This document shows positions 7,754 to 33,189 of a DNA stretch of 64,000 bases, piece after piece. Below the pieces are notes generated by a model. It was not told the origin of the DNA. It did not search any database and saw only the letters and a program-made list of their open reading frames with translations. The stretch is from IMG/VR virus record IMGVR_UViG_3300037240_000024, positions 152 to 64,151 of that record. One strand, given 5' to 3'. How positions within the stretch are numbered: the stretch's first letter is position 1; every line of letters starts with the position of its first letter. The position numbers and the translations under genes are program-made. This DNA comes from a virus.

Positions 7754-7778
7754 TCGTATTCTGCGCCTGCGAGTGACG

Positions 7779-7806
7779 CCCGCGCCTATCTGGGCGTGGG
7801 TTTTTC
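7779..7806 (+). terminator. intrinsic terminator
   Basis: CCCGCGCC-TATCTG-GGCGTGGG followed by a T run. Confidence 0.7.
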
Positions 7807-7821
7807 GTATAGGACAGGGTC

Positions 7822-8679: not shown

Positions 8680-8686
8680 GTGACGC

Positions 8687-12335: not shown

Positions 12336-12344
12336 GAGCGGATC

Positions 12345-13364: not shown

Positions 13365-14668
13365 TGGGTATCCAGGCGATCCTCGACCCGATTTTGGCGA
13401 GTCTTTCCAGCGCCGGCGCGGCTGCGGGCGGTGCGATCGGCGGTATCGGTGATGCGCTCGGGCTCGGCGGGGCTGCGGCTGGAGCCGGCGCGGCTGCGGC
13501 TGGAGCCGGCGCGGCGGATGCAGGCGCGACGGCGTTGGCCGGCGGCGCGGCCGCGGGCGGCGCGGACGCTGCGACCACGGCGGCGCTCGGCACGATCGGC
13601 GCGCAAAACGTCGCCGAAGCGGGCATTCTTTCCGCCGCCGCGCCCGGCCTCGATGCCACCGCGACGGGCGCGGGTCTATCGGCTACCGACATTGGCGGCT
13701 CCTTTGCGTCGCTTGCCGGCGGCGCGGCGGATGGTCTCGCTGGCGGCGCGGGGGCTGCATCGGCGCTCGGCGGCACGACGCCCGCAGCCACGACAGGCGG
13801 CGCGGCAACAGCCGGCGCAACCGCCACACCCGCAACGGCGGCAGGCGGTTTGACTTCTGCGCCGTCGGCAGGTGCGGCGGGCGGTGTTGGCGGCGCGGCG
13901 GGCGGAGCAGCCCCAGCGTCAGCAGCGAGCGGCGGCGTTTCGGCCGGCGACATCACGGGCGCGGCGGGTAGCGGCGGTATCGGCAGCGACGCCGTAGCGG
14001 GCGGCACGGCGGGGCAAGGCGCGACGACCGCGACTTCGGCGCTCAGCGCGGGCGCTCCCGGCACGGCTGGCGTCACGGCTCCGACAGCGGCGACGGCAGG
14101 CGCTGGTGGCGCGACAACGAGCGCAGGCGGAGGCATCGGCTCAACGCTATCCGGTCTCGGCTCCAAGGCGCTCGCCAATCCCGGCGCGCTCATTGCGGGC
14201 GGCGGTTTGCTGTCGAATCTGCTTCAGGGCGACAAGAAGCCAGCGAATTACGACACGCTGTCCGCGCAGGCCGCCGCCGACTCCGCGCGCGGCGCGCAGC
14301 TTCAGTCCTATCTCACTTCCGGCACTCTGCCGCCCGGCGTGGCTTCGGGCCTCCAGTCGGCGCACCAGGCCGCCGAGGCGACGATCCGGTCCCAGTACGC
14401 CTCGCGCGGCCAGAGCGGCTCGTCGGCCGAGGCGCAGGACTTGTCTAAGCTGTCCGAGACGACAATGGGGCAGGGCGCACAAATCGCCACGCAGTTGCTC
14501 AGCCAGGGCATCAGCGAAAGCCAGTTCTCGTCGCAGCTTTATACGCAACTCATGAACACGTCGATCAATCAGGACAATCAACTGTCCTCGTCAATCGCCA
14601 ACTTTGCCGGCGCGCTGGGCGGCTTCAAGCCCGCCGCTGCGGCGGCCCCGACGACTGCGGCGGTGTAA
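13364..14668 (+). CDS. Ala/Gly-rich DNA ejection (pilot) protein
   Basis: Low-complexity hydrophobic N-terminal half and helical C-terminus; first of three large genes after GNAT. Confidence 0.55.
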   Translation: MGIQAILDPILASLSSAGAAAGGAIGGIGDALGLGGAAAGAGAAAAGAGAADAGATALAGGAAAGGADAATTAALGTIGAQNVAEAGILSAAAPGLDATATGAGLSATDIGGSFASLAGGAADGLAGGAGAASALGGTTPAATTGGAATAGATATPATAAGGLTSAPSAGAAGGVGGAAGGAAPASAASGGVSAGDITGAAGSGGIGSDAVAGGTAGQGATTATSALSAGAPGTAGVTAPTAATAGAGGATTSAGGGIGSTLSGLGSKALANPGALIAGGGLLSNLLQGDKKPANYDTLSAQAAADSARGAQLQSYLTSGTLPPGVASGLQSAHQAAEATIRSQYASRGQSGSSAEAQDLSKLSETTMGQGAQIATQLLSQGISESQFSSQLYTQLMNTSINQDNQLSSSIANFAGALGGFKPAAAAAPTTAAV

Positions 14669-14671
14669 GAC

Positions 14672-16540: not shown

Positions 16541-19500
16541 TGCCCGATCCCTTCACCCAGACCGACCCGCTGACGCAGCCGTATCTCGGCGGAACGCCCG
16601 CGCCACAGCCTCCCGCCGCGCCGAAAAGCGTCGTTGGGTCTATGATCGCGCCGGGAGCCCCGAAGCCTCCTGCCGCCACGGCCGCGCCCGCGCAGTCCCC
16701 CGGCCTGCCCGCATCGGCTCCGCAGCCGCAAGCACAGCAGCAGCAGCAGCCCGGTAGCGTCGACCAGTTCATGCAACTTGTCCGCACGCACGAGAGCGGC
16801 GGCAACGATAAGGCATCGTCCGGCGTGGCGAACGGGCGCTATCAGTTCACTCCCGCGACATGGGCGGGCGTGGCGAAGGAGCATCCCGAATTGGGGTTGC
16901 AGCCGCAGGACATTTGGGACGGGGCCAAGCAAGACCTCGCGATGCGCGCGATTAGCAAGGACTACGTCAACGTTCTGACGATGAACGGTATTCAACCGTC
17001 GATGCCGAATATGTTCATGCTGCACTTCCTCGGAACGGGTGGCGGGCCGAAGTTTCTGAAGCAGATGCAGGCTAATCCGAACGCCAACGCAGCGGCGCTA
17101 TTCCCGACCGAGGCACAATACAATCCGACTATTTTTCACGACAAAGGCGGCCAGCCACGCTCGCTTCAGCAGGTTTATGCGCTGATGACGAAGACGTTCG
17201 GCGGGCCGGCGGCGAGCATGGCCGGACCCGCCGCCGGAGAAATGAAGGCCATCGACTCGTTTGACAAGGCGTCGGGGGTTCCGACCGCCGTGCGCGGCTT
17301 CTCGGATCAGATGACTGCGTCCGCTGGCGCGCAGACGTCGCTGGAGGAGGTGAAACTGCCGCCGTTGTTGCCGGGCATGAAACTGGACGTGTCGACGAAA
17401 CTGCCGCCGTTGTTGCCGGGCATGAAGCTCGACTATAACTCCAAGGAGCCGTTGAAGCAGGGCGCTTTCACCGATAAGGACGGCGTTTATCATCCCAGCG
17501 TAGAGGAAAAGAAGCCAGACGCGCCCGCGCCGGAAGTGATCGGCGTCGATCCGACGACCGGGATGCCGGTGTTCGCCGATCCGAAATTGAACGCCGAAGA
17601 GCAGCAGGCCGAGACGGAGACCGCCAAGGGCTTCGCGGCCGGTGTCGCTCAGGACTTTACCGGCCCGGCGTCTCTTTTGCCGAACCCGTTGGGCGGTTAC
17701 GCCGAGAAGGCCAACGAGTATCTGGACAAGACGGGCGATCCGGCGGCGCGCGTCGCGGGAAATATCGCCCCCATGTTGGCTCCTGTCGGAGAAGTGTTCG
17801 GAGGAATCAAGGCCGGTGCAAAAGCGATAGAGGGCGCCACATCGTTCACCCAAGCGATGAAAGCTGCCGCATTGCCGGCGGGCAAAGCAGCCGGGACCGC
17901 CGGGTTGACAGGCGCTTTGGCCTCTAGCTCCAACCCGATCGGCAAGGATGGCGACACGACGATGGGCGAACGCTGGGCTGGTAAAGGGCTTGGCATGGCG
18001 GAGAGCGGGCTGGTCGGCGGACTCCTTGGTGGTGGGATACCGCTTGCCGGCGCTGCTGGAAGCGCACTTATCGGTGAAGGAACTCGTCTCGGACGAATCA
18101 TTTACGGAGCCGCCGGCAAAGAAGCCGACAAGATGGCCGAAGAACTTCGTACCGGCGTCAACGCCAAGACGGGCGAAGCGATCAGCGATCAGGATCGCGC
18201 GGCGCATATCGCTGCATTGGAGCGGTTTGGCGAAAAGGCGAAGCTGGCGAAACACGAAGACGACCTGAAGAAAATCACGGACGCGCAGGCGCAGCTCGCG
18301 GAGCGTGATCAGGTTCGCGCCGCTAAAGGTCGAGATGATCGTCAAGCGACCGATCCGAAAGCCCTCGAAAAGCTGCGTGAGGGCGTCACTGCGCGGGCGC
18401 GCGAGCGCGTGTATCAAGCCGAAAGTCAGGCCAAAGAGGCCGGAGCCACAGCGGAACAGGCCAAGGGCTACGCCGTCGAGCAAGAGCAGAAAGTCTTAGA
18501 GGCTAAGAACGCCGCGCAAGAGATTGCAACAGCGTTCACCAAGAACCCGCAGATGCCGAAAGAGGAATTTGGCGCGCTGGTGCAAAAAGCCGCCGACGAT
18601 CTTGAGACCAAGGCCGAAGAGGCGCGTGAGGCCGCCGCCGATTTCAAAGGCGCCATGAAGTCTGCGCCGCCTGGGCCTGTCGTGAAGAACGATGGGGTCA
18701 TGAAAGCGCTCGACCAAATTGAGGCCAGTAGCGCAGACCGAAGTGTCGAAGCCATCACGAACGAAGTCCGCAAGCAAGTTCAGACTTGGGCGCGCGACGA
18801 AGAGGGCGCATGGCAGATTGTCGATAAAAGCGGTTTGACCGTCGAACGCGCTGATTCGCTTCGCAAAGTTTTGAACACCGCGATGCGAAGTCGGACGATG
18901 GCGGTCGAAGGAGGCTCGGCCGACGCTTCCGCTGCGCAACACCATATTCGAACGGTGCTCAGAGCGTTGGAGGACGCGACTGGCGAGGCGCACCCTCCAT
19001 ATAACGAGGCCGTGAAAGCGTGGCGCGACAATTCGCGCGGGCCGCTAGACGAGTTTTTGCCAAAGGAAGCGCTTGGCAAAATCACCAAGACGCAGGACTT
19101 TTCCGGTCGTTTCGCCATGAACGAAGGCCGGGTCGTCAACGAAATTTTGAACCAGTCGAACGCTGGGTCGGATGCGCTCGCGGTTCTTGCTCGCGATAAT
19201 AAAGAGATCGTCGGCGCGACCGAAAAGTATCTGAATCGCCAACTTTTCGGGTTGGACGGACGGAACGTGCCGACAGTAAAATCCGTGACGTCGTTCATGG
19301 AAAAGAACGAGCCCACGCTGAGGAAATTGGGTCTTTACGGCAAATACGAGGGAATGCGTGACAAACTGGCGAGCGCCGGGGAAACGGTCAAAACAGCCGA
19401 GACCGGAGCGAAGACCGCTAATGACGCGGCTAAAAAAGCCGAAGCCCAGAGAATCGCGCTCGAAGGAATTGCCGGAGATCGCCGATCCGTTCTCGAAAGA

Positions 19501-19992
19501 TCCAAGAAGATTCAGCCGGGCGGCGTGTTTACTCGCCTTGAAGAGGTCAGCCCTAAAGACGTCGCCAAAGGCGCCGACGCCAAAGCTGCTGCCGACGCCG
19601 CGCGATTGAAAGAGAAAGCGGCCGGCCCGAAAGCGGCTAGGGACGAAACGGAAGCCAACATAAAATCTTTGGCTTCCGAGAAAACAAAAGCAGTCACGCA
19701 GAAAAGGGACTTCGAAGAGTTTGAGTCGTCACTCAAGAGCATCGCGCCTCGCGAAGTGCCTGCTCAAGCGCAGTCCGCCGTGGAGGCCCTTCACAAGAAA
19801 GGCTACATCACGAAGATCGAATTGGACGAAGCCAATCAGAAAATTGCAGAAATCAAGCAGAAGTATAAAGAAGCCGACTGGGCCGATAGGATACGCCACA
19901 TGGTTATCTATCCGCTCGCCAGCGGCGCCTTTGGCATGCTGACCGGCTTAAGCGTCCACGAATACATGAGCACAAGAGCGAGGGCGCCATGA
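16540..19992 (+). CDS. large ejection protein with lysozyme/transglycosylase-like domain
   Basis: RTHESGG...ANGRYQFTPATW catalytic-Glu motif near the N-terminus; long helical remainder. Confidence 0.7.
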   Translation: MPDPFTQTDPLTQPYLGGTPAPQPPAAPKSVVGSMIAPGAPKPPAATAAPAQSPGLPASAPQPQAQQQQQPGSVDQFMQLVRTHESGGNDKASSGVANGRYQFTPATWAGVAKEHPELGLQPQDIWDGAKQDLAMRAISKDYVNVLTMNGIQPSMPNMFMLHFLGTGGGPKFLKQMQANPNANAAALFPTEAQYNPTIFHDKGGQPRSLQQVYALMTKTFGGPAASMAGPAAGEMKAIDSFDKASGVPTAVRGFSDQMTASAGAQTSLEEVKLPPLLPGMKLDVSTKLPPLLPGMKLDYNSKEPLKQGAFTDKDGVYHPSVEEKKPDAPAPEVIGVDPTTGMPVFADPKLNAEEQQAETETAKGFAAGVAQDFTGPASLLPNPLGGYAEKANEYLDKTGDPAARVAGNIAPMLAPVGEVFGGIKAGAKAIEGATSFTQAMKAAALPAGKAAGTAGLTGALASSSNPIGKDGDTTMGERWAGKGLGMAESGLVGGLLGGGIPLAGAAGSALIGEGTRLGRIIYGAAGKEADKMAEELRTGVNAKTGEAISDQDRAAHIAALERFGEKAKLAKHEDDLKKITDAQAQLAERDQVRAAKGRDDRQATDPKALEKLREGVTARARERVYQAESQAKEAGATAEQAKGYAVEQEQKVLEAKNAAQEIATAFTKNPQMPKEEFGALVQKAADDLETKAEEAREAAADFKGAMKSAPPGPVVKNDGVMKALDQIEASSADRSVEAITNEVRKQVQTWARDEEGAWQIVDKSGLTVERADSLRKVLNTAMRSRTMAVEGGSADASAAQHHIRTVLRALEDATGEAHPPYNEAVKAWRDNSRGPLDEFLPKEALGKITKTQDFSGRFAMNEGRVVNEILNQSNAGSDALAVLARDNKEIVGATEKYLNRQLFGLDGRNVPTVKSVTSFMEKNEPTLRKLGLYGKYEGMRDKLASAGETVKTAETGAKTANDAAKKAEAQRIALEGIAGDRRSVLERSKKIQPGGVFTRLEEVSPKDVAKGADAKAAADAARLKEKAAGPKAARDETEANIKSLASEKTKAVTQKRDFEEFESSLKSIAPREVPAQAQSAVEALHKKGYITKIELDEANQKIAEIKQKYKEADWADRIRHMVIYPLASGAFGMLTGLSVHEYMSTRARAP

Positions 19993-20544: not shown

Positions 20545-21186
20545 GTGTACATCCCCGGCACGAAAACACAGACGAACTCCGACCCATTCTATGACGCCTC
20601 GGGCACGATTACGACGGGCGGCACGCCGCAGCTTATCCGGCCGATGGTGCCGAGCTGCTCGCATTTCGTCATTCAGAACCTCTCGTCCGCGAATTCGATG
20701 TACGTTGAGTTTGGATCAGCGCGCGCCACCGCCGCGCTCTCCAGCGGGACGATCTCCGCGATTACTGTGACGAACGGCGGTTTCGGCTTCACCTACCCGC
20801 CCGTCGTGCGCTTCGCCGGTGGCGGTCATGCCGGGAACATGAAGTATCTCGGGCTTAATCAGCCGGGCGGCGACGGGCCGACCTCGACGCAAGTGAAGGG
20901 TCGAACGGCCATCGCGCACGCTGTCCTGACCTCCGGCGTCGTCACTTCGATCGTCATCGACGACCCCGGCGCCGGCTACGTGATCGCGCCCTATGTCTTT
21001 ATCGCCAACACGGGCCTCGACCCTTACGGCTGCGCCAATCCGTTCTTCGGCTCGGCGGTCTCCGGCATTCTGCTCGGCGCCGGCGGCGGCTCCTATTATT
21101 CGAACGGCACAGTCTGCACGACCGACCCCATCTCGATTTATTGCAGCGCCTCGGCGCAACCCTTCACGTTCAAGTGGATGGTCTAA
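20545..21186 (+). CDS. virion structural protein with GxGYxxxP repeats
   Basis: GGFGFTYPP and GAGYVIAP repeats; RBS AGGAG. Confidence 0.65.
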   Translation: MYIPGTKTQTNSDPFYDASGTITTGGTPQLIRPMVPSCSHFVIQNLSSANSMYVEFGSARATAALSSGTISAITVTNGGFGFTYPPVVRFAGGGHAGNMKYLGLNQPGGDGPTSTQVKGRTAIAHAVLTSGVVTSIVIDDPGAGYVIAPYVFIANTGLDPYGCANPFFGSAVSGILLGAGGGSYYSNGTVCTTDPISIYCSASAQPFTFKWMV

Positions 21187-21780
21187 ATGGCTGCTCCGGC
21201 GCTCACCAATTACGCGGACGGCGTCGGCGCGGTAAACGGCGACAACCTCAACACGTTCGTTCAAGGCGGCGTGCTGTTGGCGCAGCTTCAACTTTTCCCC
21301 GGCGCATGGAACGGCCAAGTCGTCTATCTCGGCGGTTACACCTCGACGGGTGACGGCGGTCAAGGTTTTTTCTGGTGGAACTCCACATCCACCGCGACGA
21401 GCAACGGGGTGACGGTCATCGTTCCGTACGGAACGGTCGGCTATGGGGCCTGGCTGCGTCTTAACGACAACTCCGCTGGGGTATCGACGTTTCGGTACGT
21501 CACCGCAGGAACGAGCGACGTAGCGCGTTCAGTGGACTCAACGATCGTTTGGAAATCCACGGTCACGTCGGGCAAAACGGAAGTGCTCCCAGCGGCGAAC
21601 ATCTTGACGGCGGGGACGACGATGACTGTGAAAGACGGGAATTACACGTCGGCGAGCTACCCGATCACGGTGACTTCGACGGCGAGCACGATAGACTCGA
21701 ATCCCTCGGACATAATTCAGCAGAACGGCGCGTCGCGTAGCTATCGCACGGATGGCGTGTCGAATTGGGTGATCGTATGA
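21187..21780 (+). CDS. tail-spike anchor-like protein (no signal peptide)
   Basis: GVGAVNGDNLNTF...GYTSTGDGGQGFFWW N-terminal module of the tail-spike head-binding type; C-terminal TLP...KD...IDS...TDGVSNW fibre-tip-like domain. Confidence 0.6.
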   Translation: MAAPALTNYADGVGAVNGDNLNTFVQGGVLLAQLQLFPGAWNGQVVYLGGYTSTGDGGQGFFWWNSTSTATSNGVTVIVPYGTVGYGAWLRLNDNSAGVSTFRYVTAGTSDVARSVDSTIVWKSTVTSGKTEVLPAANILTAGTTMTVKDGNYTSASYPITVTSTASTIDSNPSDIIQQNGASRSYRTDGVSNWVIV

Positions 21781-23240
21781 AGCCTGTCGCTAAAAATCTT
21801 GCGTTGGCCGCGCTTCTTTTGGCAGGAACATCTCTGTCGTCAATGGATTTCGCTCGCGCGGCGTTCGATCCGCTTGACCCGCAGGCGACGGACAGCATTC
21901 AGATCTCTCCAACATTCTGCCCGTTCGCGCAATTGACGGGCACGATACCGAACGACGCCTGCATTCAGAGCGCCATAAATTACGCTTGCTCCACGGCGAA
22001 CAGCCACACTGGAAACAACGCCGGAACGCTCATATTCACCAGGGCTAACTACTATATCAAATTCGGCGTTAACGTCCCCGCCAGTTGCGCCGGTCTTTAT
22101 TTCAAAGGTCAGGGCGCGGGAAATGGATACACGGCTAACGCCAACACTTACATTTTCTCGGACAATAATTGTACGGGACCCATACTTAATTTCTACTCCG
22201 ACGCCACACAGAATTATGTGTACGGTGGTGGAGTGAGAGACATTGCGTTTTACAACGCCCCCTTCAACGGTCTCCGCGACGGGAGCGTATCTTGCAAATA
22301 CCCGCTTATACAAGCGTCTTATGGCGAGTTCATGAATTTTGAAAACATCTATTCGTGGCTGGCTTATCAGCAAATAAAACTGGTAGGCGGCATCCACAGC
22401 AAGATTGATTTTATGTTCTTGGATCAAGTGCTCCAAGACAGTCCCGGCGCACTCGAATTTATGGGTACAGGCGCTTCTTCAAAGTCTAGCACGGCTCCGC
22501 ACACTCGGCAGGACGCCGTGCTTGTCCGAAAAGTATTCGGTGGCGGATCAGCCACTATCCAAGCCGGGCATAAACTCTTTACCGGAATTTGGTGGCACGC
22601 CTTTAGCGACACGCTGGAGTTACAAGACATCACTTTTGAGAACACAAACAACGTCATCAAGATCGACTGCACGGGTGGCGGCGCCGCTGACATATCGGCG
22701 TGTCCTGCGTTTTTGCAGGCGTTTGACATTCAGGGGGAGGGGGCAGGCGGAAATCTTTTCGACGCTCAGGATTTTCAACATCTGAGCATCACAGACTCCT
22801 ATTTCCATTGTTTTGAAGCCAGTCTCTACGGCGGTTGCAACGACGCCATGTTTTTGAGAAATGGTATTTTCTCTCAAACTTCCGGCGTCCAAATTAAAGG
22901 CGGTCAATTCGATTCGGGTCAACACGCTGGCATAGAGGCCGAAATACAGGGCTTAAATATCTCGGGAGCTTCGCTATTTAACAACAATTTGGGAAATAGC
23001 GGCGGAGCCGACATAGGCGTCAACACGCCAGGGGCGGGACATCTATCCGGTCAAATCAGCATAGCGAATAACTTCTTCTGCCTAAGTTCAGGAAACACGC
23101 TCAGCGAGGTGGCCGTTTTATTTTCTAACGGCTTGGATTACTTGCAAGCCACGCAGAATATGTTTGACGGATGCGGAAGCGGCGTTGTGAACAACTCCGG
23201 CGGAAGCCACGTCACTGTCACCCCGAACGTGGGCCCGTAA
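21777..23240 (+). CDS. pectin-lyase-like beta-helix protein (tail-spike/depolymerase-like) with Sec signal peptide
   Basis: NDACIQSAINYA cap motif then N/G/S-rich beta-helix; N-terminus MKPVAKNLALAALLLAGTSLSSMDFARA. Confidence 0.65.
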   Translation: MKPVAKNLALAALLLAGTSLSSMDFARAAFDPLDPQATDSIQISPTFCPFAQLTGTIPNDACIQSAINYACSTANSHTGNNAGTLIFTRANYYIKFGVNVPASCAGLYFKGQGAGNGYTANANTYIFSDNNCTGPILNFYSDATQNYVYGGGVRDIAFYNAPFNGLRDGSVSCKYPLIQASYGEFMNFENIYSWLAYQQIKLVGGIHSKIDFMFLDQVLQDSPGALEFMGTGASSKSSTAPHTRQDAVLVRKVFGGGSATIQAGHKLFTGIWWHAFSDTLELQDITFENTNNVIKIDCTGGGAADISACPAFLQAFDIQGEGAGGNLFDAQDFQHLSITDSYFHCFEASLYGGCNDAMFLRNGIFSQTSGVQIKGGQFDSGQHAGIEAEIQGLNISGASLFNNNLGNSGGADIGVNTPGAGHLSGQISIANNFFCLSSGNTLSEVAVLFSNGLDYLQATQNMFDGCGSGVVNNSGGSHVTVTPNVGP

Positions 23241-23243
23241 GCC

Positions 23244-23609
23244 ATGGCCAATCCGGCGCCTGCAAATTTTCAGAACGGCGTCGGCGCGGTCAGCGGCGAC
23301 AATCTCAACACGTTCCCGCAGGTGGTTTTCAATCTGGCGCAACTCCGAACTTTCACCGGCGTCGCCAGTTCGGTCGCCTTCGTTCTTGGAGCGGTGGCGC
23401 CGAACGACGGCGGCCAGTCTTTCTATTTCTATCAGTCGAGCGGTTCTTACGTGGACAATGGGACGTCGGTGATCGTTCCGTACTTTTCTTTGACGGGGGC
23501 GTGGATTCAGATCCAATTCTCTCTTAACGGCGCGGCCTACCCGACTTCTAATCCTGGCGCCGGGTCCGGTCTGATTTGGAATAATCAGGGGTTTCTATGC
23601 GTAGCCTAA
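23244..23609 (+). CDS. second tail-spike anchor-like protein, paralog of the 21187..21780 N-terminus
   Basis: GVGAVSGDNLNTF...PNDGGQSFYFY. Confidence 0.6.
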   Translation: MANPAPANFQNGVGAVSGDNLNTFPQVVFNLAQLRTFTGVASSVAFVLGAVAPNDGGQSFYFYQSSGSYVDNGTSVIVPYFSLTGAWIQIQFSLNGAAYPTSNPGAGSGLIWNNQGFLCVA

Positions 23610-25633
23610 AGAACGCCATTCTCTACGCGCCGCTTGTCGTGGTGTTGGCGTCAATCGCGCCGAAACCGGCGCTCGCCGCCGGCTCGACCTATCTGCCGTC
23701 GATTGGCTGCACAGGCTACCCGTACGGCCACACGACCAGTAATCCGATCACCTGCTCCCCGACGATCCCTTCGGGGGATCTGGGGCCGGGGGCGGCGGCG
23801 ACAAATCTTGGCGTAAATCAAGTGTCTCCGACCGAACCGCGATACGGTGGGGTTTGCGACGGCAGCACGGTTGACACGGCGGCTTTCGACGCCGCCATCA
23901 CGGCCTCTACGCTTATTGTCCTTCCGGCCGGTAAAACCTGCCTCGTGGGGAACCTCGTTCTCACCAGTCGGCAGGTTCTGGATTGCAACAATTCCTTGCT
24001 CAACGCCGCGCCCGGCGCGCTGTGGATAGTGAAGAAAACAGGTTTTGCGTCTCAGATCAGAAACTGCCTTTTTAGCGATCCGACTTTGATTACGATGCAG
24101 ACGACGACGCTTTCGTCGGGCGTCGCGTCGGGCGTCAACATCCTCCCTGTCGTGAGCGCGGCGACGTTCCAAGCCAACATGATCGCCACGGTGCAGCTCG
24201 CCAGTGGAGCTTACTGGACGAGCAAGGTTACTTCCGTGAATGTGGGCGGCAATACGATCACTTTGGCGGACCCGATCCCTTGGACCGTGACAGCCATCGC
24301 GGTCGGCAGTGGCGGGACAGGCTGGGGTAGTGACGAAGCGGTGTTGTTGGGTGTGGATGGTGCTCCGACGACGCTAGGTTTGACGACTACAGCAGGGGCG
24401 ATAACGGGTGTGACGATCGATGCTCCGGGGCTCTACCAGTTGAATCCCGGCTCTCCGCTCGCGCCTTTCGATCCAAAAGCACCGGCCGCCTTCGGGGCGA
24501 GCCTCAACGTCACTTATGGCGGCGCGCTTGCCGGCGCGTTTGTGGACGCGGCTTTTGGTGTAGTGACCGACGATCAGGCCAATGGCGGGACGATCGAGAA
24601 CGTCACCATCGGCGAAGCCCCAGTCGGGCTTGAGGTACTTGCCTCGATCGGAACGACTACGGAAGAAAACATCCGGAGTTTTAACGTAAACGCTGCAATC
24701 TTGACCGCTTTTGCCAAATTGTCAGGGGTTAACAACACGGTTTTCGACAAACTTATCGGCACCGGCTTCACGCATCACGCATCGGCTTACGGCGCAACTG
24801 GACTTTATATTGAAGGTGATAGTCGCACCTACGCCAATGGTGGCAATACTTACGATTTTTGGACACTCGGGTTTGAAACCGGGATGTTGGATATGAACGG
24901 CCAGCTAGATCACATTCTGCACGGGATCGTAGATACGAACAGAAACTACGGAATGGTGTGCATCGGCTGTCAGTACACCGATTTCGTACACTTATTCGCT
25001 TCTTTCACCGGGCCAAACGCCATTCCATCTCTTGGTTCTACGGCCGGCAAAGGCATAGGCGCATACTTTGGTAGTGGCGCAGTCAATCCGGCGATTAACG
25101 ATTCAGTCACTAAGCTCACCTCATCTAATAATGTCTCAGACCTGCACTTCGGAGATGGTGCGGGGAGCGTGAAGATCGGCGAGCCGTGGGGGCCATCCAA
25201 GATTATGACCACGCCGAATACCGGGTCGATTTCGCTCTACTCGTCCACGGCGATCGTGGCGTTCTCGACTTTGCAGGTTGGCGGCCTGACGACGCCTCGC
25301 TATTTGGCTCCCGGCAACATCTCTGCGACACAAACAGTGTCGGCGCTCGCCGGGGTTTACGGAATGATTTCCGGTGGCTCGATCAGAAGCTCAATCGCGC
25401 CGGGAGTGGACACATACACGGCCATCATCTACACGAACCAATGGAGTGGAAGCGCCTATCTGGGCTGGAATTCTGTCGGCTCTTGCACCTGGACGAGCAC
25501 AGCGACGGGGTGTAACATCAACAACTCGGGCGTGGTGATCGCGCCACTGGATCAGATCGATCTTGGGTTAGCGACGTCAGGTGCGACGTTTGTCGCTAAT
25601 CAGACGATTACAGCGCAAGTGACGGGGCAGTGA
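23597..25633 (+). CDS. beta-helix tail-spike-like protein with Sec signal peptide
   Basis: GGVCDGSTVDTAAFDAAI pectate_lyase_3-like cap; N-terminus MRSLKNAILYAPLVVVLASIAPKPALA. Confidence 0.65.
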   Translation: MRSLKNAILYAPLVVVLASIAPKPALAAGSTYLPSIGCTGYPYGHTTSNPITCSPTIPSGDLGPGAAATNLGVNQVSPTEPRYGGVCDGSTVDTAAFDAAITASTLIVLPAGKTCLVGNLVLTSRQVLDCNNSLLNAAPGALWIVKKTGFASQIRNCLFSDPTLITMQTTTLSSGVASGVNILPVVSAATFQANMIATVQLASGAYWTSKVTSVNVGGNTITLADPIPWTVTAIAVGSGGTGWGSDEAVLLGVDGAPTTLGLTTTAGAITGVTIDAPGLYQLNPGSPLAPFDPKAPAAFGASLNVTYGGALAGAFVDAAFGVVTDDQANGGTIENVTIGEAPVGLEVLASIGTTTEENIRSFNVNAAILTAFAKLSGVNNTVFDKLIGTGFTHHASAYGATGLYIEGDSRTYANGGNTYDFWTLGFETGMLDMNGQLDHILHGIVDTNRNYGMVCIGCQYTDFVHLFASFTGPNAIPSLGSTAGKGIGAYFGSGAVNPAINDSVTKLTSSNNVSDLHFGDGAGSVKIGEPWGPSKIMTTPNTGSISLYSSTAIVAFSTLQVGGLTTPRYLAPGNISATQTVSALAGVYGMISGGSIRSSIAPGVDTYTAIIYTNQWSGSAYLGWNSVGSCTWTSTATGCNINNSGVVIAPLDQIDLGLATSGATFVANQTITAQVTGQ

Positions 25634-25645
25634 CGGGGCAGTGAC
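25619..25645. repeat. 11-bp tandem duplication GTGACGGGGCA x2 + GTGAC
   Basis: Read directly at the gene junction. Confidence 0.85.
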
Positions 25646-25993
25646 GTGCTGAAATCCGTTTTGATCGTTTTGCTTTTGTCTTGCGCGCCCGCGCAGGCGC
25701 AGTACTTTCCATGCCCCTCCTTCACGGCCGGTTGGGCGGTCAGCGGGCCAGTGCCGATCACGTCGGTCGCCTATGACCAGCAGACGCAGATCCTGTCGGT
25801 CGTCTGGTACGCCACGCAGCCGACGCAGTACTATCCGGTGCCGCTCAGCGTCATGCAGGCGTTTAATGGTTCCCACAATCTTCTCGCCACTTTCAACGCC
25901 TACGTCTCGGGACGCTATCATCCGATCTGGCTTCAGGAGAAGTCGAACTGCCCGGTCCTTCAGGATGGAGGGGGTTACATATGGGTCGACTGA
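25646..25993 (+). CDS. KTSC-domain-like protein with signal peptide
   Basis: ITSVAYDQQTQILSVVW...YYPVP...F...FNAYVSGRY matches the KTSC pattern; N-terminus MLKSVLIVLLLSCAPAQA. Confidence 0.6.
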   Translation: MLKSVLIVLLLSCAPAQAQYFPCPSFTAGWAVSGPVPITSVAYDQQTQILSVVWYATQPTQYYPVPLSVMQAFNGSHNLLATFNAYVSGRYHPIWLQEKSNCPVLQDGGGYIWVD

Positions 25994-28560
25994 GGACGGC
26001 ACTCCTAGCCCTTATGGCCTCCATGGCGCCGGTGTTCGCTCAGCAAGCGCCCAGCACCGTCACGAACATGCCGTTCGCTTCGACGCCGCTCAGCGGGTCG
26101 GAACTGCTTTATCTTGTTCAAAACGGCAACCCGAGAAAAACGACCGTCGGGAGCCTCTCCTTCTCAGCGATCAATAATTTGCTGACGATGCCACAAACAG
26201 TAAGAGGAAACTGGACGTTCACCGTTCCAATAACGGTTGCCGTTCCGCAGGCGCTTACAACGCCGCTGGATGTCACGTCTGGTGGAACCGGAAACGCGAC
26301 TGGCAGTCTATCGGCTCTGATGGCCACGCCAGCTAGAGGCAGCTTAGCGTCTACGTTATCGACGATTCTTGGACGCATCGTCAGTATTGACGACGCCCTT
26401 GGCATTCACGCGAACGGCTTGACCGACGACACGCCTACGGCACAGACCCTCTTGAACGCGGTAGGGGCGAGCGGGGGCGGAACGGTCCTCGTCGGCCCGC
26501 ACCAGTATGCGCTCAACCCGGCGATCATCGCAGGCCAGCAGCCCACGGCGGCCCTGTTCAACACATCGGGTTTCACGCTTCTCATCCCGAACGCCAACAC
26601 GCTTTTTCAGGCCGGAAGCGCGATCACGCTGACAGGTTTCGCGGCACCGCTGGCGCAGCTTAATGGGACTTGGAGCGTCAGTTCGGCGGGATCGAGCAGC
26701 CTTGTCGTCCTTACGGCTTTGACGGGAACGCAGACGCAGACCAGCACGGGGCTCGGGTCGCTCTACTCCGTTCTGTCCATCCCCTCGAACGTGAAACTGG
26801 TCTGTCCGAAGGCGCTCTCCGGTATTCCGCCGTCTGGCATGACCTACGGCCAGTTGCCTTATACCTTCCTGACCTCGGGGTTTGGCACAGTCTCTCCGCA
26901 GCGAAATGCCGGCTTCTACGGCTGCAACGTCGTCAACGCGGCAGTCGCCAATTCAATCATCTCGACGACGACGATCCGGCAGAACATTAATGTCCAGCAG
27001 GCGTTTTTAGGGACGGGTGTTTACGTTGGATCGTCGGACGTTGAATTGCAAGATTTGCTCATCGTCGGACACAGCGTCGGCGTCAATTCGCAAGGTGGCG
27101 CGCGGGGGCGATGGTCGCACCTGAATATCGACGCGACGCAATGTACTAACACGAACAATTCGCACGACATTTCGCATTACCTAGATTTGCACTGCTTTCC
27201 GTTTGCGACGGGCGGAGCCAACCAGTTCGCGTCAGGGGCGATCACTGGCGTTGCCGACAATGGTGCGGGCTTGTGGCGGGTCAGCACGTCTTTCGCATCT
27301 CAGGTCGTCGTCGGCGATACGGTTTATGTTGCGGCGACAGTCGGCGCAGGTTCGGCGAACAATACTTGGACCGTCGCCGCCACGGACGGCGCAACTTATA
27401 TCGACCTCGCCGCCAGTAATTCGGCGGGAACCAGCACTTATACGGGCGCGACGACGAACACGTCCTATTGCCTTGAAGGCATGACCGGGACCGCAGGTAT
27501 AGGCGTCGGCGATAATATCAGCGGGACGAATATCCCCGCCGCCTCCACCGTGACCGCCGTCATTCCCCGGCAGAACGCCGTTTGCATCAGCAACAAGATG
27601 ACGGCGACCGCAGCCGGCGTGGCTATCACGACGACGCCGATTGCCTATTCGACAGGTGGCAACGTCTATCTCGACGCTTCCAAACGCAGCGGATACGGCC
27701 ACTCGTGGACGGATGGAGAAGCTAACGTATGTGTCGATTGCTTCTCCTACGATCACGAGACGGGCTTTTACATTGGAGCACTCGCGTCGTGGACGACGCT
27801 GACGAACATTAAGGTTGATAACTACATCAGCGAGCATGACGTAAACAGCGTCTGCATCCAGATTGATGGATCGTCGGTAGGGACGCTGATTTCGGGGGGC
27901 AGCACGCAGTCCTGCGCGGTCCCGTTGCTGGGAACGTCTACCAACGCCAATCAAGCGCATATCATCACGGGCATGGTGCTAAACGGCCTCGACCGGCGCT
28001 TGGAGTTGGCGACGGGACGGTATGAAATCGGCTTAAATTCCGGCAACTCCCTGCCCAACTTCGTCGGCGATAACGTCGGCTATCTCGGCTACAACATGAA
28101 CGACTTCGGCGCGTCGTGGCAGTTCGCGACCTCCAACGGGCAAACGGCAGTCGAGCCGTTCGGAAATTCGTTCTCGGGAAGCAACGTTTTTCAGGGTCAG
28201 TTCTACCTAAATGGCATCGTCAGCATGGGTGGCAACGGCACGCGCTGCGGCCAATTTAATACATGCGTGGTTTCAACAACTGGCCCTACAGTGGACGCGA
28301 CCGTGAACGTCAGCGCCTGCTCTTCCACACCACAGTCGGGCAATGCCGGTTCGGTCGCATGCAGCAACACAACAACGGCACCTGCAACCTTCCCGTCCAT
28401 CGCGGCAAACGGACAGAAATTCAGCTTCCTGTTTCAAAACGCCGTCACGGTGACGTGGGCGTCAGGCAGCGGAACGGTGGGCGCGGCCTGTCCTGCTTCC
28501 GTGCTGGCGGGGCAGATGGTCAGTGCTGAGGCGTATGGCGGCGTTTGGTACTGTCGATGA
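25981..28560 (+). CDS. beta-helix tail-spike-like protein with Sec signal peptide
   Basis: HANGLTDDTPTAQTLLNAVGASGGGTVLV cap motif; N-terminus MGRLRTALLALMASMAPVFA. Confidence 0.65.
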   Translation: MGRLRTALLALMASMAPVFAQQAPSTVTNMPFASTPLSGSELLYLVQNGNPRKTTVGSLSFSAINNLLTMPQTVRGNWTFTVPITVAVPQALTTPLDVTSGGTGNATGSLSALMATPARGSLASTLSTILGRIVSIDDALGIHANGLTDDTPTAQTLLNAVGASGGGTVLVGPHQYALNPAIIAGQQPTAALFNTSGFTLLIPNANTLFQAGSAITLTGFAAPLAQLNGTWSVSSAGSSSLVVLTALTGTQTQTSTGLGSLYSVLSIPSNVKLVCPKALSGIPPSGMTYGQLPYTFLTSGFGTVSPQRNAGFYGCNVVNAAVANSIISTTTIRQNINVQQAFLGTGVYVGSSDVELQDLLIVGHSVGVNSQGGARGRWSHLNIDATQCTNTNNSHDISHYLDLHCFPFATGGANQFASGAITGVADNGAGLWRVSTSFASQVVVGDTVYVAATVGAGSANNTWTVAATDGATYIDLAASNSAGTSTYTGATTNTSYCLEGMTGTAGIGVGDNISGTNIPAASTVTAVIPRQNAVCISNKMTATAAGVAITTTPIAYSTGGNVYLDASKRSGYGHSWTDGEANVCVDCFSYDHETGFYIGALASWTTLTNIKVDNYISEHDVNSVCIQIDGSSVGTLISGGSTQSCAVPLLGTSTNANQAHIITGMVLNGLDRRLELATGRYEIGLNSGNSLPNFVGDNVGYLGYNMNDFGASWQFATSNGQTAVEPFGNSFSGSNVFQGQFYLNGIVSMGGNGTRCGQFNTCVVSTTGPTVDATVNVSACSSTPQSGNAGSVACSNTTTAPATFPSIAANGQKFSFLFQNAVTVTWASGSGTVGAACPASVLAGQMVSAEAYGGVWYCR

Positions 28561-28571
28561 TTGGAAATTTC

Positions 28572-30308
28572 ATGAAAAACCTACTCGCCTCCACCACCAT
28601 CCTCGCGGCGCTGCTCGGCGTCGGGCCTGCGGCGGCGCAGATCGTGCCGGGTGCGGGTGGCGGAATTACTGTCGGTGCGCCCATCACGGGTACGTGCCCC
28701 AATGGAGACATCATCTACAACTCCAGCGGCCTCCTAGCGTGCCAGGCGGCGGGCGGAGCCGGCACGGTCACAAGTGCGGGCTTGACGTTCACGGGCGGCA
28801 TCCTCTCCGTCGCGGGAAGCCCCATCACGACGTCAGGGACTTTCGCGCTGACCATCGCCGGCACGAGCGGCGGCATTCCCTATTTCAACTCAGCGACGGG
28901 TTGGGCGTCGAGCGCGGCTTTGGCTGCGAACGCTCTTGTCATCGGCGGCGGGGCCGGTGTGGCTCCCGCTACGACTACGACAGGGGCCGGCATCGTTGCG
29001 GCGGTAGCGAACAACATCAACACGGCGAGCGGCCTCCCGAGCGTGAATGGAGCCGTCACGACAGGCGATTGCTTGATGTGGGGTCCGGGCGTGACGGACG
29101 CGGGAACCGCCTGCGCGCCTACGGTCCCTACAACGAATATCGTGCTTTTCAATTATCTGGGAGCATCATCAGCCGCGACTGTGGTTGCAGGCGGAACGGG
29201 CGGCACCAACGGAGCCTGCACGGTCACGGTCTCGGGCGGTACATTTTCGACCGCCGCGCAGTTTAGCGGAACCGTCACGGCCAATGCGTTAGCCGGGGCG
29301 TTAACGCTCGCCACGGCTGGCTCCTACACGGCGCTCCCGAGCAACAGTGCCGCTGTGACTGGATGCGGGTTGACGGGCGCTACCCTCAATGTGGTTTTTG
29401 CCGGCGTCAACCAGACCTATACGCCCACTACAGGGATGAAACTTGTTCGAGTATATGAGTGGGGTCAGGGAGGCGGCGGCGGTTCCGGGAGTATGGAACT
29501 CACTGCTGTGGCTTCAAGCGGTGGAGGTGGAGGTGGAGGTGGCGGTTGTACCTTCTCTGACTATAGCGCCTCGTATGTTGGCGGTTCGGCGACGGTCACA
29601 GTTGGCGGAAGCGCCAACAATGGCGTCGCGCCGACCGCAAACACGACTGCCGGAGGAAACGGCGCTGTTGGTGCTTTGTCGTCATTCGTCAGCGGGTCAT
29701 TCGGCAAAGCTAGCGGCGGCGGTGGCGGGGCTGGCGGGCAGTTGGCGGCTACAGCCAGCGGCGGCGGCGGTGGTTCGGGTTGGGGCGGTGGTGCGAGTTC
29801 CACGTCCGCTGTTGGTGGTACGGGGGGCCTTTCAGCCGGTGGCGGCGGCGGTGGTGTCATTGGCGTCAATGCCTCAGCTGTTGGAGGTGCCGGTGGTGGC
29901 GGCGGAACAACCACGTTAGGCGTCGCTACTAACGGCGGTGTCGGTGTTTGCGGAGGGTCCGGCGGAGGGTCCGGTGGAGGCCTCACGGCGGCTAGCGGTA
30001 CAAACGCAGGTGGTAATGGCGGTACGCAAAATGGCGCTGGCGGCAACGGGACTGTCGGCGGGACAGGTGGCGCGGCCAACACCAGCGGCAACTCGGGTAC
30101 GAACGGACTTGGCTCTGGTCCTATGACGATTGGCGGTACGGGTGGCGGAGGCGGCGGTTCCGGCGCATCAGGGTCAGCGGGCAACGGCGGCAACGGCGGA
30201 TCATGCGGCGGCGGCGGTGGTGGTGGCGGCGATATGGTCAACGGCGGCGTGGCTGGGAACGGCGGCCAAGGCGGGTATGGCTGCGTAGAAATTGAGGAAT
30301 TCTTTTGA
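28572..30308 (+). CDS. glycine-rich tail-fibre-like protein with Sec signal peptide
   Basis: TYTPTTGMKLVRVYEWGQGGGGG...GGQGGYGCVEIEEF glycine-rich domain; N-terminus MKNLLASTTILAALLGVGPAAA. Confidence 0.7.
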   Translation: MKNLLASTTILAALLGVGPAAAQIVPGAGGGITVGAPITGTCPNGDIIYNSSGLLACQAAGGAGTVTSAGLTFTGGILSVAGSPITTSGTFALTIAGTSGGIPYFNSATGWASSAALAANALVIGGGAGVAPATTTTGAGIVAAVANNINTASGLPSVNGAVTTGDCLMWGPGVTDAGTACAPTVPTTNIVLFNYLGASSAATVVAGGTGGTNGACTVTVSGGTFSTAAQFSGTVTANALAGALTLATAGSYTALPSNSAAVTGCGLTGATLNVVFAGVNQTYTPTTGMKLVRVYEWGQGGGGGSGSMELTAVASSGGGGGGGGGCTFSDYSASYVGGSATVTVGGSANNGVAPTANTTAGGNGAVGALSSFVSGSFGKASGGGGGAGGQLAATASGGGGGSGWGGGASSTSAVGGTGGLSAGGGGGGVIGVNASAVGGAGGGGGTTTLGVATNGGVGVCGGSGGGSGGGLTAASGTNAGGNGGTQNGAGGNGTVGGTGGAANTSGNSGTNGLGSGPMTIGGTGGGGGGSGASGSAGNGGNGGSCGGGGGGGGDMVNGGVAGNGGQGGYGCVEIEEFF

Positions 30309-30351: not shown

Positions 30352-31218
30352 ATGACAATCGCAATGCCGCGCGTCCTGCAAACACCGACTTCGGCATACT
30401 CGCCGACGCCGATCTCGCACGACGTTTTCTTCGTCCACATCTCCGAAGGCGAGTCAGCGGGTGGCGTCGCGTGGCTGTGCAGCGGCAAGGTGCAGGCCAG
30501 CGTCCATCTGTTCATGAACGAGGACGGAACGCTGGTTTATCAGCTTGTCCCGCTCAATTTCAAAGCCTGGGCCGAGTGCGCGTTCAATGCTAGAGGTCCG
30601 TCGATGGAAATACCCGGCGTTACCGCTGACGGTATCCCCGATGCGCGCTGGAGGGCGGCGGCGCTGATCGTGGCCCGAGTCTGTCGAGCCTATGCCATCC
30701 CTCCGGTTTGGGCGCGCGGAGGCCAAGGGCGCGGCATTGCGCAACATCATGACCTCGGCGCGGCTGGCGGCGGCCACGTCGATTGCAGTCCGGTCGGATC
30801 GCCCGTGTGGCTCACCTTTATCGGCTACGTCAAAGCGGCCTATGACGCTTTCGGCGACGGCCCCCTGCCACCGTTCGCGTTGCACGGCCTGCCGGGGCCT
30901 TCGGAGGTCGTCGCGCCGCCGTTCGTCCCGCCCGAGCCGAGCCACAATGGCGCGGCTCGCAGCGAGCCGGGCGACGTCATCGCGCACGAGACGAACAGCG
31001 GCTACGCGGCGCACTCGATTGCGGCGTTGCAGGCCGACCTCAACAAGCTCGGCTACACGGATGATGCGGGCAATGAACTCGACATCGACGGCGGCATGGG
31101 CGGCTTGACGACGCAGGCGCTCAAGAAAGCCCAGGCGGCGCTCGGCGTCGGCGTGGACGGGCTGATCGGGCCGGCGTCGTGGGCGGCTATTGAGACGGCG
31201 CTGGCGAAGAAGCCATGA
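30352..31218 (+). CDS. endolysin: N-acetylmuramoyl-L-alanine amidase + peptidoglycan-binding domain
   Basis: FFVHISEG...ASVH...MEI...QHHD...HVDC amidase residues; C-terminal LQADLNKLGY...IDG..G.LT..ALKKAQ...VDG.IGP. Confidence 0.8.
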   Translation: MTIAMPRVLQTPTSAYSPTPISHDVFFVHISEGESAGGVAWLCSGKVQASVHLFMNEDGTLVYQLVPLNFKAWAECAFNARGPSMEIPGVTADGIPDARWRAAALIVARVCRAYAIPPVWARGGQGRGIAQHHDLGAAGGGHVDCSPVGSPVWLTFIGYVKAAYDAFGDGPLPPFALHGLPGPSEVVAPPFVPPEPSHNGAARSEPGDVIAHETNSGYAAHSIAALQADLNKLGYTDDAGNELDIDGGMGGLTTQALKKAQAALGVGVDGLIGPASWAAIETALAKKP

Positions 31219-31886: not shown

Positions 31887-32183
31887 ATGGACCCTCAACT
31901 CAAAAGCACGCTTACCACGATCCTTGCGGCAGTGCTGGGCGGCGCAGGCGTGTGGGCTGTGAAAGTCGGCGTTGTGCCGGTATCGGATCAAGCCAACTTC
32001 GTGAACATGCTTGTCACGGTGGTCATCGGCGGCGCGGGTGCGGTGCTGACGTGGTACAAGGCTCGGCAACTTTCGGCGATTGCGGTCATCGCCGCCGTGA
32101 ACAACACCGACAACGGCCTCAAGGTCGTCGCGGCGAGCGCAGCCAACGCGCCTGTCCGTGTCGAAACCGCGCCACTCAAGTAG
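31887..32183 (+). CDS. putative holin (two TM segments)
   Basis: Two hydrophobic helices; lysis cassette position. Confidence 0.55.
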   Translation: MDPQLKSTLTTILAAVLGGAGVWAVKVGVVPVSDQANFVNMLVTVVIGGAGAVLTWYKARQLSAIAVIAAVNNTDNGLKVVAASAANAPVRVETAPLK

Positions 32184-32192
32184 GGCCGCACG

Positions 32193-32795
32193 ATGATTTC
32201 GCACGCCGCTCTCGCCGAGATCGCCAGCCTCTCCTATCGAGGCCCGCAGTCCCGCATCCTCGCGCTCGGCGTCAGCGTCGATTACGATCCGCGCGGCGAT
32301 GAAATTGTCATCGCTGGTCCCGGCACAAAGGACGCGCTTAACTGGGTCCGCGATCTGGATTTCTGGCCGATCTGGGTTCCTGGCATCGGCCCGATGCACG
32401 GCGGCTTCGCGCGGGCGGCGCTTGAGGTATGGGCCGATTTGTCGCCCAAGCTGCGCACGACGGGCCTAGCCACCTACACCGGGCATAGCATGTGGGCGGC
32501 GGTGGCGGCCGATCTAGCGGCGCTGCATGCGATCCACAGGCCGAAGCAGCCGTTTCGGTTTGTCGGGATAGCGTCGCCCCGCGCAGCGTTCGTCAACCCA
32601 TATTTTGGACGTCTGCTGAAGCGCGGCGTCGAGGCCGTCAACTATGCCCGGCGAAACGACGCCGTGCCGTGGGTTCCGACGCTCCCCTATCATCACGGCT
32701 GCAAAACGATCATGATCGGCCAATCGACGGGTGACGTTATTTCCGACCATGCGTGCGCCCGCTACGTTGCCGATTTGAAAGCCCTCAACCTGTAG
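32193..32795 (+). CDS. class 3 lipase-like alpha/beta hydrolase
   Basis: PGT..ALNW..D, HGGF, YTGHSMWAAVA, ND.VPWVP, DH motifs. Confidence 0.75.
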   Translation: MISHAALAEIASLSYRGPQSRILALGVSVDYDPRGDEIVIAGPGTKDALNWVRDLDFWPIWVPGIGPMHGGFARAALEVWADLSPKLRTTGLATYTGHSMWAAVAADLAALHAIHRPKQPFRFVGIASPRAAFVNPYFGRLLKRGVEAVNYARRNDAVPWVPTLPYHHGCKTIMIGQSTGDVISDHACARYVADLKALNL

Positions 32796-32805: not shown

Positions 32806-33189
32806 ATGCGCAAAATCCTCACCATCGCCGCGCTTGCCCTCTCGCTCGCCGGCTGCAATCAGCAGTCCATCAATTCCAGCATCATCCAGACGACGCAGAA
32901 CATCGTGGCGCTCAACAATGCGTTGGTGCAAGTCAACTCAACGATCCTCGACAACGTGATCGCGCAGGCCAAAATCCTGGCGCCCTACCAATGCGGCGCG
33001 TTCGCGCTCGCCAAAACCATCGTCAACAGTTCGACCGCTGCGGCGAAAGTGAACGCCTATCTGGCGAAGAACGTCGCGGCGGGCGTCACGGTCGTTGCGG
33101 TCACGAACATCTGTACGGCGCTAGGCTATGGCCCGTCTGTCACGGCCGCCCCGGCGTCGAGCGTTCCTGCGACTGTGAACGGCAACTGA
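32806..33189 (+). CDS. lipoprotein (o-spanin candidate)
   Basis: Lipobox LAGC after a hydrophobic signal. Confidence 0.65.
   Translation: MRKILTIAALALSLAGCNQQSINSSIIQTTQNIVALNNALVQVNSTILDNVIAQAKILAPYQCGAFALAKTIVNSSTAAAKVNAYLAKNVAAGVTVVAVTNICTALGYGPSVTAAPASSVPATVNGN

Follow-up and report, generated by a model that had tools for sequence, protein, structure and literature searches.

Results

Five adjacent genes with predicted leaders

The stretch analysed here (the window) comprises 64,000 nucleotides (nt) of IMG/VR virus record IMGVR_UViG_3300037240_000024, positions 152 to 64,151. This is almost all of a record of 64,293 bases, which is complete by CheckV. It belongs to a peat-soil phage with approximately 75 genes in the window and a G+C content of 60%, and metagenomes of peat and permafrost, taken from 16 studies, contain near-identical DNA. 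Between a 1151-residue ejection-type protein and the endolysin lies a spike block with five adjacent genes, termed A to E, whose products each open with a predicted signal peptide. All lie on the + strand: A at 21777-23240 (487 amino acids, aa), B at 23597-25633 (678 aa), C at 25646-25993 (115 aa), D at 25981-28560 (859 aa) and E at 28572-30308 (578 aa). Two small leaderless genes, referred to as anchors for reasons given below, precede A and B respectively, namely the long anchor anc1 (21187-21780, +, 197 aa, without cysteine) and the short anchor anc2 (23244-23609, +, 121 aa, one cysteine). The genes of the block are co-oriented, partly overlapping and located inside a late structural operon.

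All five N-termini are as a preliminary description of this DNA had reported them, each having n-, h- and c-regions followed by an AxA-type (small-x-small) site. The n-regions contain 1-2 Lys/Arg within the first 2-6 residues. The hydrophobic cores comprise 11-16 uncharged residues with mean Kyte-Doolittle values of 1.8-2.7, which is shorter than a membrane anchor, and the c-regions contain Pro/Gly. The predicted signal peptides of A and B span 28 codons (21777-21860, +, cut ARA|A) and 27 codons (23597-23677, +, cut ALA|A). Those of C, D and E, each with Gln at +1, span 18 codons (25646-25699, +, cut AQA|Q), 20 codons (25981-26040, +, cut VFA|Q) and 22 codons (28572-28637, +, cut AAA|Q). Hence all five have the charged n-region, the short core and the AxA site without Pro at +1 that characterise substrates of the Sec translocase and signal peptidase I (SPI). 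A twin-arginine motif is absent from all five leaders.

The leader calls rest on rules, on reading by eye and on the comparative evidence given below. In a rule-based scan of all 362 open reading frames (ORFs) of at least 60 aa, in six frames, the five genes gave the top scores. Beyond them, the only real-looking gene flagged was a lipoprotein at 32806-33189, the other matches being short or antisense ORFs; a holin-like gene at 31887-32183 was flagged too under a looser rule. The scan found no leader on the capsid, ejection and anchor proteins, as had been claimed, and likewise none on proteins with immunoglobulin (Ig)-like repeats. Five adjacent leader matches among ~75 genes are not a product of chance, and the feature is real and non-random.

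The preliminary description had also allowed that the true starts might lie downstream of the leaders. Instead, the starts are backed by Shine-Dalgarno (SD)-like motifs or by overlap with the upstream gene, as well as by homologues from independent assemblies. The start of A overlaps the anc1 stop (ATGA), whilst B and D each overlap the upstream gene by 13 nt. AGGGG lies 6 nt upstream of the B ATG and GGAGGGGG lies 7 nt upstream of the D ATG. The E start has only a weak SD-like motif. For C, the sequence LLSC at residues 10-13 led us to check for a lipobox. Its orthologues in two related phage loci (L012 and L013) have no Cys at this position and retain an AxA site with Q or A behind it, and therefore an SPI signal is favoured over a lipobox signal. 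Taken together, these data suggest that the five leaders are genuine Sec/SPI signals.

In one public gene call, that of the ESM Atlas, Met12 is taken as the start of D, and most of the leader is thereby lost. No ribosome-binding site is present at a usable distance from this codon, and automatic annotation may be hiding leaders such as that of D.

In-frame Met codons inside the D leader, together with the Met12 gene call, would suit a scheme of two protein pools, in which a Sec-escaping or internally started protein builds the virion and the exported fraction acts as a free enzyme. Leaderless family members with the same cysteine pattern indicate that a leader is dispensable for making the fold, as this scheme would need. 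However, there is no internal Met in the leaders of B, C and E, and the only strong ribosome-binding site of D precedes Met1. Moreover, in homologues a leader left in place would precede the head-binding domain, and cysteines inside leaders are excluded from the even counts described below. We consider two such pools quite unlikely.

Conservation begins at the predicted cleavage site

The preliminary description had proposed checking whether related phages keep the leaders, and they do. Leaders are retained in 10/10 non-identical A homologues (down to 38% identity), 5/6 D homologues and 4/4 B homologues, the lowest identity of leader-keeping homologues of these three proteins being 34-38%. The leaders of the A homologues differ in sequence and share the same architecture, and they remain N-terminal even where 50-300 extra residues stand before the beta-helix. 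The sole D homologue without a leader, P0014, begins only 3 nt downstream of the gene before it and is thus truly leaderless. An exhaustive profile search of 1.84 billion proteins yielded 79 representatives of the A family. Elsewhere, a related contig (L008) has at 6884-18304 ten consecutive leader-bearing genes after a Hydrolase_2 internal protein, all with even numbers of cysteines in the mature part, and the first of the ten has the N-terminal domain of the homologues P0004/P0005 behind its leader.

Conservation begins exactly at the predicted cut. A and its homologue P0002 are identical at 17/28 leader positions and at 60/60 of the residues that follow. For D and P0018 the leader is identical at 7/20 positions and the following 60 residues at 53/60, and the bodies beyond are unrelated. 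Similarly, the leaders of C and its L012 and L013 orthologues are of unrelated sequence, and the mature start is identical in L012 (QYFPCPSF) and related in L013.

A further mark of the cut is the residue that follows it. Among 66 related leaders read by eye, which share the AxA pattern, Gln occupies +1 in 44 (21/44 when the cut was placed by an automatic rule); at other AxA motifs of these proteins, Gln comes next in 3.0% of cases. A preference for Gln at +1 is documented for SPI substrates of Bacteroidetes (PMC5837995), and Gln at +1 also occurs on Porphyromonas phage genes (PMC10367356).

These observations bear on whether the N-termini are export signals at all, or else uncleaved structural or membrane-tethering segments or wrong start calls. 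AlphaFold2 (AF2) gives residues 1-36 of A no structure (predicted local distance difference test, pLDDT, <50), as such a segment might show, although this is compatible with every reading. On the other hand, cores of 11-16 residues are too short for a membrane anchor, the starts are backed as described above, and the predicted cut is marked by AxA, by Gln at +1, by the abrupt onset of conservation and by cysteine parity. That the N-termini are something other than signals is therefore improbable.

The mature proteins have even numbers of cysteines

The mature proteins contain 12 (A), 10 (B), 2 (C), 16 (D) and 10 (E) cysteines, exactly the counts given in the preliminary description; a third cysteine of C is inside the leader. 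The leaderless structural proteins at 9528-12335, 13319-14668, 14672-16540 and 16537-19992 and both anchors, more than 3400 residues in all, have 0-1 cysteine each. All 12 cysteines of A are invariant in 11 sequences, and additional cysteines in the A, B and D families come and go in pairs with matching presence patterns.

Across the leader-bearing proteins that were read, 65/66 have an even number of cysteines in the mature part. A single cysteine is found in the leader of 15 proteins, and all 15 have an odd total; leader cysteines therefore stand outside the pairing. We also compared leader-bearing and leaderless genes in five phage loci, using the automatic leader rule and leaving holins out of the leader-bearing set. 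All 25 leader-bearing genes had an even, non-zero number of cysteines (median cysteine content 1.84%). For the 64 leaderless genes parity was random, with 29 having none, 15 an even and 20 an odd number (median 0.29%), and cysteine content differed between the two sets (Mann-Whitney p = 4e-7). An even-cysteine bias is an accepted sign of oxidative folding in exported proteins (PMC2823432). By this pattern, the five proteins look disulfide-bonded.

Beta-helix spike-type proteins, a fibre-like protein and a small accessory

We then consider what the five proteins are. Sequence searches of A, B, D and E against Pfam, PHROG and PDB gave only weak matches to tail-fibre PHROGs, and assignment relied mainly on structure. 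The AF2 model of A (pLDDT 88, predicted template modelling score 0.88) is a right-handed beta-helix of the tailspike/polysaccharide-enzyme type that begins at residue 40, residues 1-36 being disordered. Its nearest solved structures by Foldseek are the AlgE6/AlgE4 epimerases, the Sf6 tailspike and the RbmB lyase (E-values ~1e-7 to 1e-6), and the CBA120 and HK620 tailspikes are also among its matches. The ESM Atlas model of B itself matches pectate-lyase/beta-helix clusters, with a WcaM cluster among its structural neighbours. The Atlas structure of D, which carries a conserved N-terminal module of its own, matches beta-helix clusters with a template modelling (TM) score of 0.54. C is a KTSC-domain protein (PF13619, E-value 1.4e-7) with 97 residues when mature. 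The product of gene E has fibre-like repeats, a Gly-rich C-terminal half and a match to phrog_863 (E-value 0.008), and its single-sequence fold (pLDDT 32) gave no usable model. Thus, the five had been called spike- or fibre-like, and this description suits the beta-helix proteins A, B and D, suits E weakly and does not apply to C. The models suggest that A, B and D are tailspike-type proteins that bind or cut polysaccharide and that C is a small accessory.

No relatives of A, D and E were found among 50,697 cultured-phage records, and a pattern scan of IMG/VR gave none for B, D, E and the anchors. Two queries of 185,579 one-per-species genomes gave none for A or the anchors, and JGI metagenome contigs gave none for the anchors.

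Two smaller features of these genes were observed. Residues 213-274 of E (29208-29393) form a 60-aa module that is ~60% identical to an insert in the B homologues P0022/P0023 and is absent from B. Its recurrence there points to module shuffling between leader-bearing proteins. The B stop is spanned, at 25619-25646, by 2.5 tandem copies of an 11-nt unit (GTGACGGGGCA), which extend as far as the GTG with which C begins. The two genes share one reading frame, with one TGA and four codons between them, and a change in the number of units would alter only the B-C spacing.

Homologues and anchors point to a role in the virion

The strongest pointer to a virion role comes from homologues of A that carry a head-binding domain. 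The leader of P0006 is immediately followed by a domain that matches the head-binding domain of a solved tailspike, 7eeq (E-value 3e-4), and also the tail spike of 9vyg/9vyh. The same N-terminal motif is present in four further A homologues (P0025, P0041, P0079 and P0090). In the cultured phages P4282 (Ralstonia) and P26218 (Rhodoferax) the domain runs from residue 4-5 of a leaderless protein, and therefore removal of the leader would restore the usual tailspike N-terminus. The genomic sites of homologues also fit, these being the tail module of a P22-like podophage and a position after the baseplate wedge genes of a myophage. In a further locus (L005) no spike-sized gene other than that of the leader-bearing protein lies between a 1859-aa protein and the endolysin, and a leaderless protein of 1081 aa is encoded beyond the lysis genes. 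These comparisons suggest that leader-bearing proteins of this type are virion spikes.

Mature A itself opens directly at the beta-helix, without a particle-binding domain, and B has none either. It is here that the anchors become relevant. anc1 precedes A and anc2 precedes B, and the two share their N-terminal ~90 residues (46% identity over residues 1-92). anc1 has a weak match to the tail fibre family phrog_19929. The anchor orthologues in L007 and L013 are marked PF27114 (Phage_tail_beta), a family not in the Pfam copies that we searched, so that this annotation consists of precomputed matches only. anc2 ends in a C-terminal tail (..NPGAGSGLIWNNQGFLCVA), and a tail of this kind (..WNNxGFxCVA) is present in all 3 loci in which a B-type gene comes next (the window, L007 and L012). 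The L013 anchor has no tail and no B-type gene follows it, giving agreement between tail and B-type gene in 4/4 loci. Such co-variation is as would be expected of a docking pair. A complex prediction with three copies of anc2 and three of B residues 28-190, run without controls, scored 0.00, a value that counts neither for nor against docking. D has a different arrangement, as its N-terminal module behind the leader is joined to unrelated bodies in P0018 and in genes of L012 and L013.

We also considered a -1 frameshift fusing anchor and spike. No slippery heptamer was found at the anc2-B junction, the only one inspected, and the leaders of homologues are all N-terminal. The idea was dropped.

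The leaderless proteins of the tail module include a 213-aa protein with Ig-like repeats directly upstream of anc1 (20545-21186, +, phrog_460/4406-type), which shares 70% identity with its positional counterpart in the relative L007. The Ig-like repeat domain (phrog_701/460 type) is common to this protein and the leaderless proteins at 5552-6658, 6671-7753 and 9528-12335. The last of these, 935 aa long, has at least 5 copies of the repeat and one cysteine.

The same evidence can be set against the possibility that the five proteins are exported and never enter the virion. They would then be free periplasmic or released enzymes and adhesins that strip capsule, exopolysaccharide (EPS) or O-antigen from inside, aid release, or block re-adsorption or superinfection, with leaderless proteins as the real receptor-binding proteins. 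Such a role would suit the genuine-looking leaders and a mature A that starts at its beta-helix, and bacterial tailspike-like enzymes that are exported do exist (WceF, PMC7949094). The leaderless 935-aa Ig-repeat protein would be available as an alternative fibre. However, anc1 and anc2 would be left with nothing to hold, and the co-occurrence of the short-anchor tail with a B-type partner would lack a counterpart. A solved head-binding domain lies right behind the leaders of homologues, no other spike-sized gene is available between the 1859-aa protein and the endolysin of L005, and the conserved N-terminal module of D with its swapped bodies resembles virion fibres. We regard free enzymes as an unlikely account of the five genes, and attachment of the exported proteins to the particle as the better one.

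A lytic cassette and a probable alphaproteobacterial host

The window encodes a homologue of GapR (44025-44282, E-value 6e-32) and one of GcrA (45620-46324, E-value 5e-18). Together with a lipoprotein in the lysis block, these homologues point to an alphaproteobacterial host with two membranes. A Bacteroidota host, suggested by Gln at +1 as that phylum follows a 'Q-rule' (PMC5837995), was rejected on the grounds of the G+C content of 60% and of GcrA/GapR. The phage has a Mx8-like major capsid protein and a terminase-like gene at 61498-63378, and a DNA polymerase and a primase-helicase are encoded by the phage itself. Neither DsbA nor an S26 signal peptidase was found among its genes.

The spike block ends at the endolysin (30352-31218, +; Amidase_2 and PG_binding_1), which has no leader. 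It is followed by a holin-like small membrane protein (31887-32183, +) with a hydrophobic N-terminus and no family match, assigned by its lysis-block position. The lipoprotein at 32806-33189 (+; LAGC lipobox; LPAM_1, E-value 0.0019) is possibly an outer-membrane spanin. Between these two lies a class-3 lipase/esterase (32193-32795; Lipase_3, E-value 1.8e-8; phrog_21992, E-value 3e-21), which may be a lysis enzyme attacking the outer membrane.

Display by a lysogen, one of the options raised in the preliminary description, proved to be the weakest of them. In such lysogenic conversion a prophage would express the proteins, and the lysogen would display or secrete them, remodel its surface or exclude other phages. 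Exported proteins encoded beside tail genes are indeed known, as with lambda Lom and T5 Llp. However, no tyrosine integrase was found in the window, where the only recombinase found is a 184-aa serine recombinase of the resolvase/invertase type. The genes are co-oriented and partly overlapping in a late structural operon, and two queries of the 185,579 species genomes found no relatives. We judge this reading very improbable, and return below to spikes that are exported during lytic growth and join the particle.

The serine recombinase lies at 58827-59381 and matches the Resolvase domain with an E-value of 6e-38. No inverted repeats bracketing the spike block, as inversion by a small serine recombinase would use, were found.

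Discussion

A proposal for spike assembly in two compartments

We hypothesise that export of the spikes is followed by cleavage and oxidation in the periplasm of an alphaproteobacterium, and that they then dock on particles at lysis. On the comparisons made here we regard this as plausible, if short of probable. Late in infection, the five proteins would be threaded through SecYEG of the two-membrane host and their leaders cleaved, often exposing Gln. Folding and trimerisation would follow in the periplasm, where host Dsb proteins would close 1 to 8 disulfides. Meanwhile the capsid, ejection proteins, tail and the leaderless anc1/anc2, almost free of cysteine, would be built in the cytoplasm. 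The two pools would mix when the envelope is opened by holin and endolysin, with A and B docking on anc1 and anc2 and D via its own N-terminal module. A likeness to the proposed docking step is that purified P22 tailspike completes spikeless heads in vitro. Before lysis, the periplasmic enzymes may cut nascent surface polysaccharide and so lessen the loss of progeny on cell debris. Translocation, cleavage, the site of disulfide formation and the time of docking are steps that we infer.

In its most general form the proposal is that the particle is finished outside the cytoplasm, Sec-exported, SPI-trimmed and disulfide-bonded spikes or fibres docking at or after holin action onto leaderless anchors. 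This we put forward tentatively and as rather doubtful. Were it so, gene pairs of a cytoplasmic anchor and an exported spike would be the genetic trace of assembly in two compartments. The preliminary description had proposed an exported receptor-binding system, and this proposal is partly supported, in so far as the leaders look genuine and are conserved, the proteins look disulfide-bonded and homologues carry a head-binding domain.

Several points weigh against such assembly. The first is physical, as late Sec transport of hundreds of copies of trimer-forming proteins of 50-90 kDa is demanding. The second concerns the leaders. Among A-family representatives with a complete N-terminus (n=64), ~44 have a leader and ~20 do not, and leaders have therefore been gained and lost within one family. 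Similarly, the leaderless N-terminus (MTTPNDVQNQINAVPW...) of P0014 and of the L013 gene at 6201-7535 matches the mature N-terminus of the leader-bearing P0013, showing that closely related phages have the same spike module either behind a leader or lacking one. The third concerns the disulfides. The preliminary description had taken disulfides to imply the periplasm, and this premise is weakened in that leaderless A-family members mostly have even numbers of cysteines too (17/21); disulfides alone are therefore no proof of periplasmic folding. Export is therefore not needed for the beta-helix fold or its disulfides, and the disulfides could form after release. Moreover, the 935-aa Ig-repeat protein could be a cytoplasmically made fibre of the head or tail, in which case the leader-bearing set is perhaps not the sole receptor-binding set. 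Lastly, choosing cut sites by eye may have inflated the count of Gln at +1, and many of the compared sequences are related to one another, such that the counts are not independent.

Comparison with known systems

Textbook assembly of tailed phages is wholly cytoplasmic, and tailspikes are the standard model for the folding of beta-helix trimers in the cytoplasm. The podovirus tailspikes (Xanthomonas phage PBR31, 7eeq; 9vyg/9vyh; Sf6, 2vbm; P22 gp9) resemble the proteins described here in their beta-helix body and their position in the tail module, and A homologues such as P0006 carry the same head-binding domain. However, known podovirus tailspikes are leaderless and taken to fold in the cytoplasm, whereas here there is a leader and many paired cysteines. 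Furthermore, the anchoring part of A and B is encoded apart from the spike, in a leaderless gene of its own. A 2026 preprint likewise treats a P22 tailspike without signal peptide as the usual expectation.

Exported proteins with tailspike-like features are known from bacteria. The mosaic adhesive trimer (MAT) fibres of Bdellovibrio bacteriovorus (Caulton et al. 2024, PMC10769870) share a signal peptide, a conserved N-terminal domain, mosaic phage-like modules and, in some, disulfides. They are chromosomally encoded and displayed by the predator cell, whereas the genes here are part of a complete phage genome, between ejection and lysis genes. WceF of Pantoea stewartii and WcaM-type proteins of EPS clusters (PMC7949094) are exported, trimeric, tailspike-like beta-helices that act on the bacterium's own polysaccharide. 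WceF, however, has a twin-arginine translocation (Tat) signal and is encoded in a bacterial EPS cluster, in contrast to structural-operon genes of a phage without a twin-arginine motif.

Amongst phages, the filamentous-phage proteins pIII and pVIII are virion proteins that pass through Sec with cleavable signals and form disulfides in the periplasm (background in PMC4823517). Filamentous phages are assembled at the membrane and extruded without lysis, whereas a tailed phage with a lytic cassette must fill its heads in the cytoplasm. In Porphyromonas phages (Matrishin et al. 2023, PMC10367356), SignalP predicts Sec leaders, several with Gln at +1. Those leaders are on capsid, spanin and unknown genes and are read as envelope modifiers, tail fibres not being mentioned. 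The lambda Lom/Bor and T5 Llp class comprises small outer-membrane proteins or lipoproteins from a prophage; A, B, D and E differ in being 487-859 aa long and in a late operon. Our literature search turned up no account of Sec leaders on the spikes of tailed phages. To these precedents the present genome adds the split pairs of anchor and leader-bearing spike, a parity statistic that excludes leader cysteines, the conservation boundary at the cut, Gln at +1 and the offset match to a solved head-binding domain.

Implications

The combination of a leader, even numbers of cysteines and Gln at +1 provides a simple sequence signature that can be applied to cultured relatives, and the leader-bearing and leaderless copies of one module (P0013 versus P0014/L013) provide a natural pair for comparison. 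If spikes do mature in the periplasm in what would be a sizeable group of environmental phages, completion of the virion would depend on host Sec, signal peptidase and Dsb, which would be new host factors and possible routes to resistance. Biotechnological expression of such depolymerases would need periplasmic or oxidising conditions. Moreover, the infectivity of a burst would be set at the moment of lysis, and spike enzymes could act on the polysaccharide of the producing cell before release.

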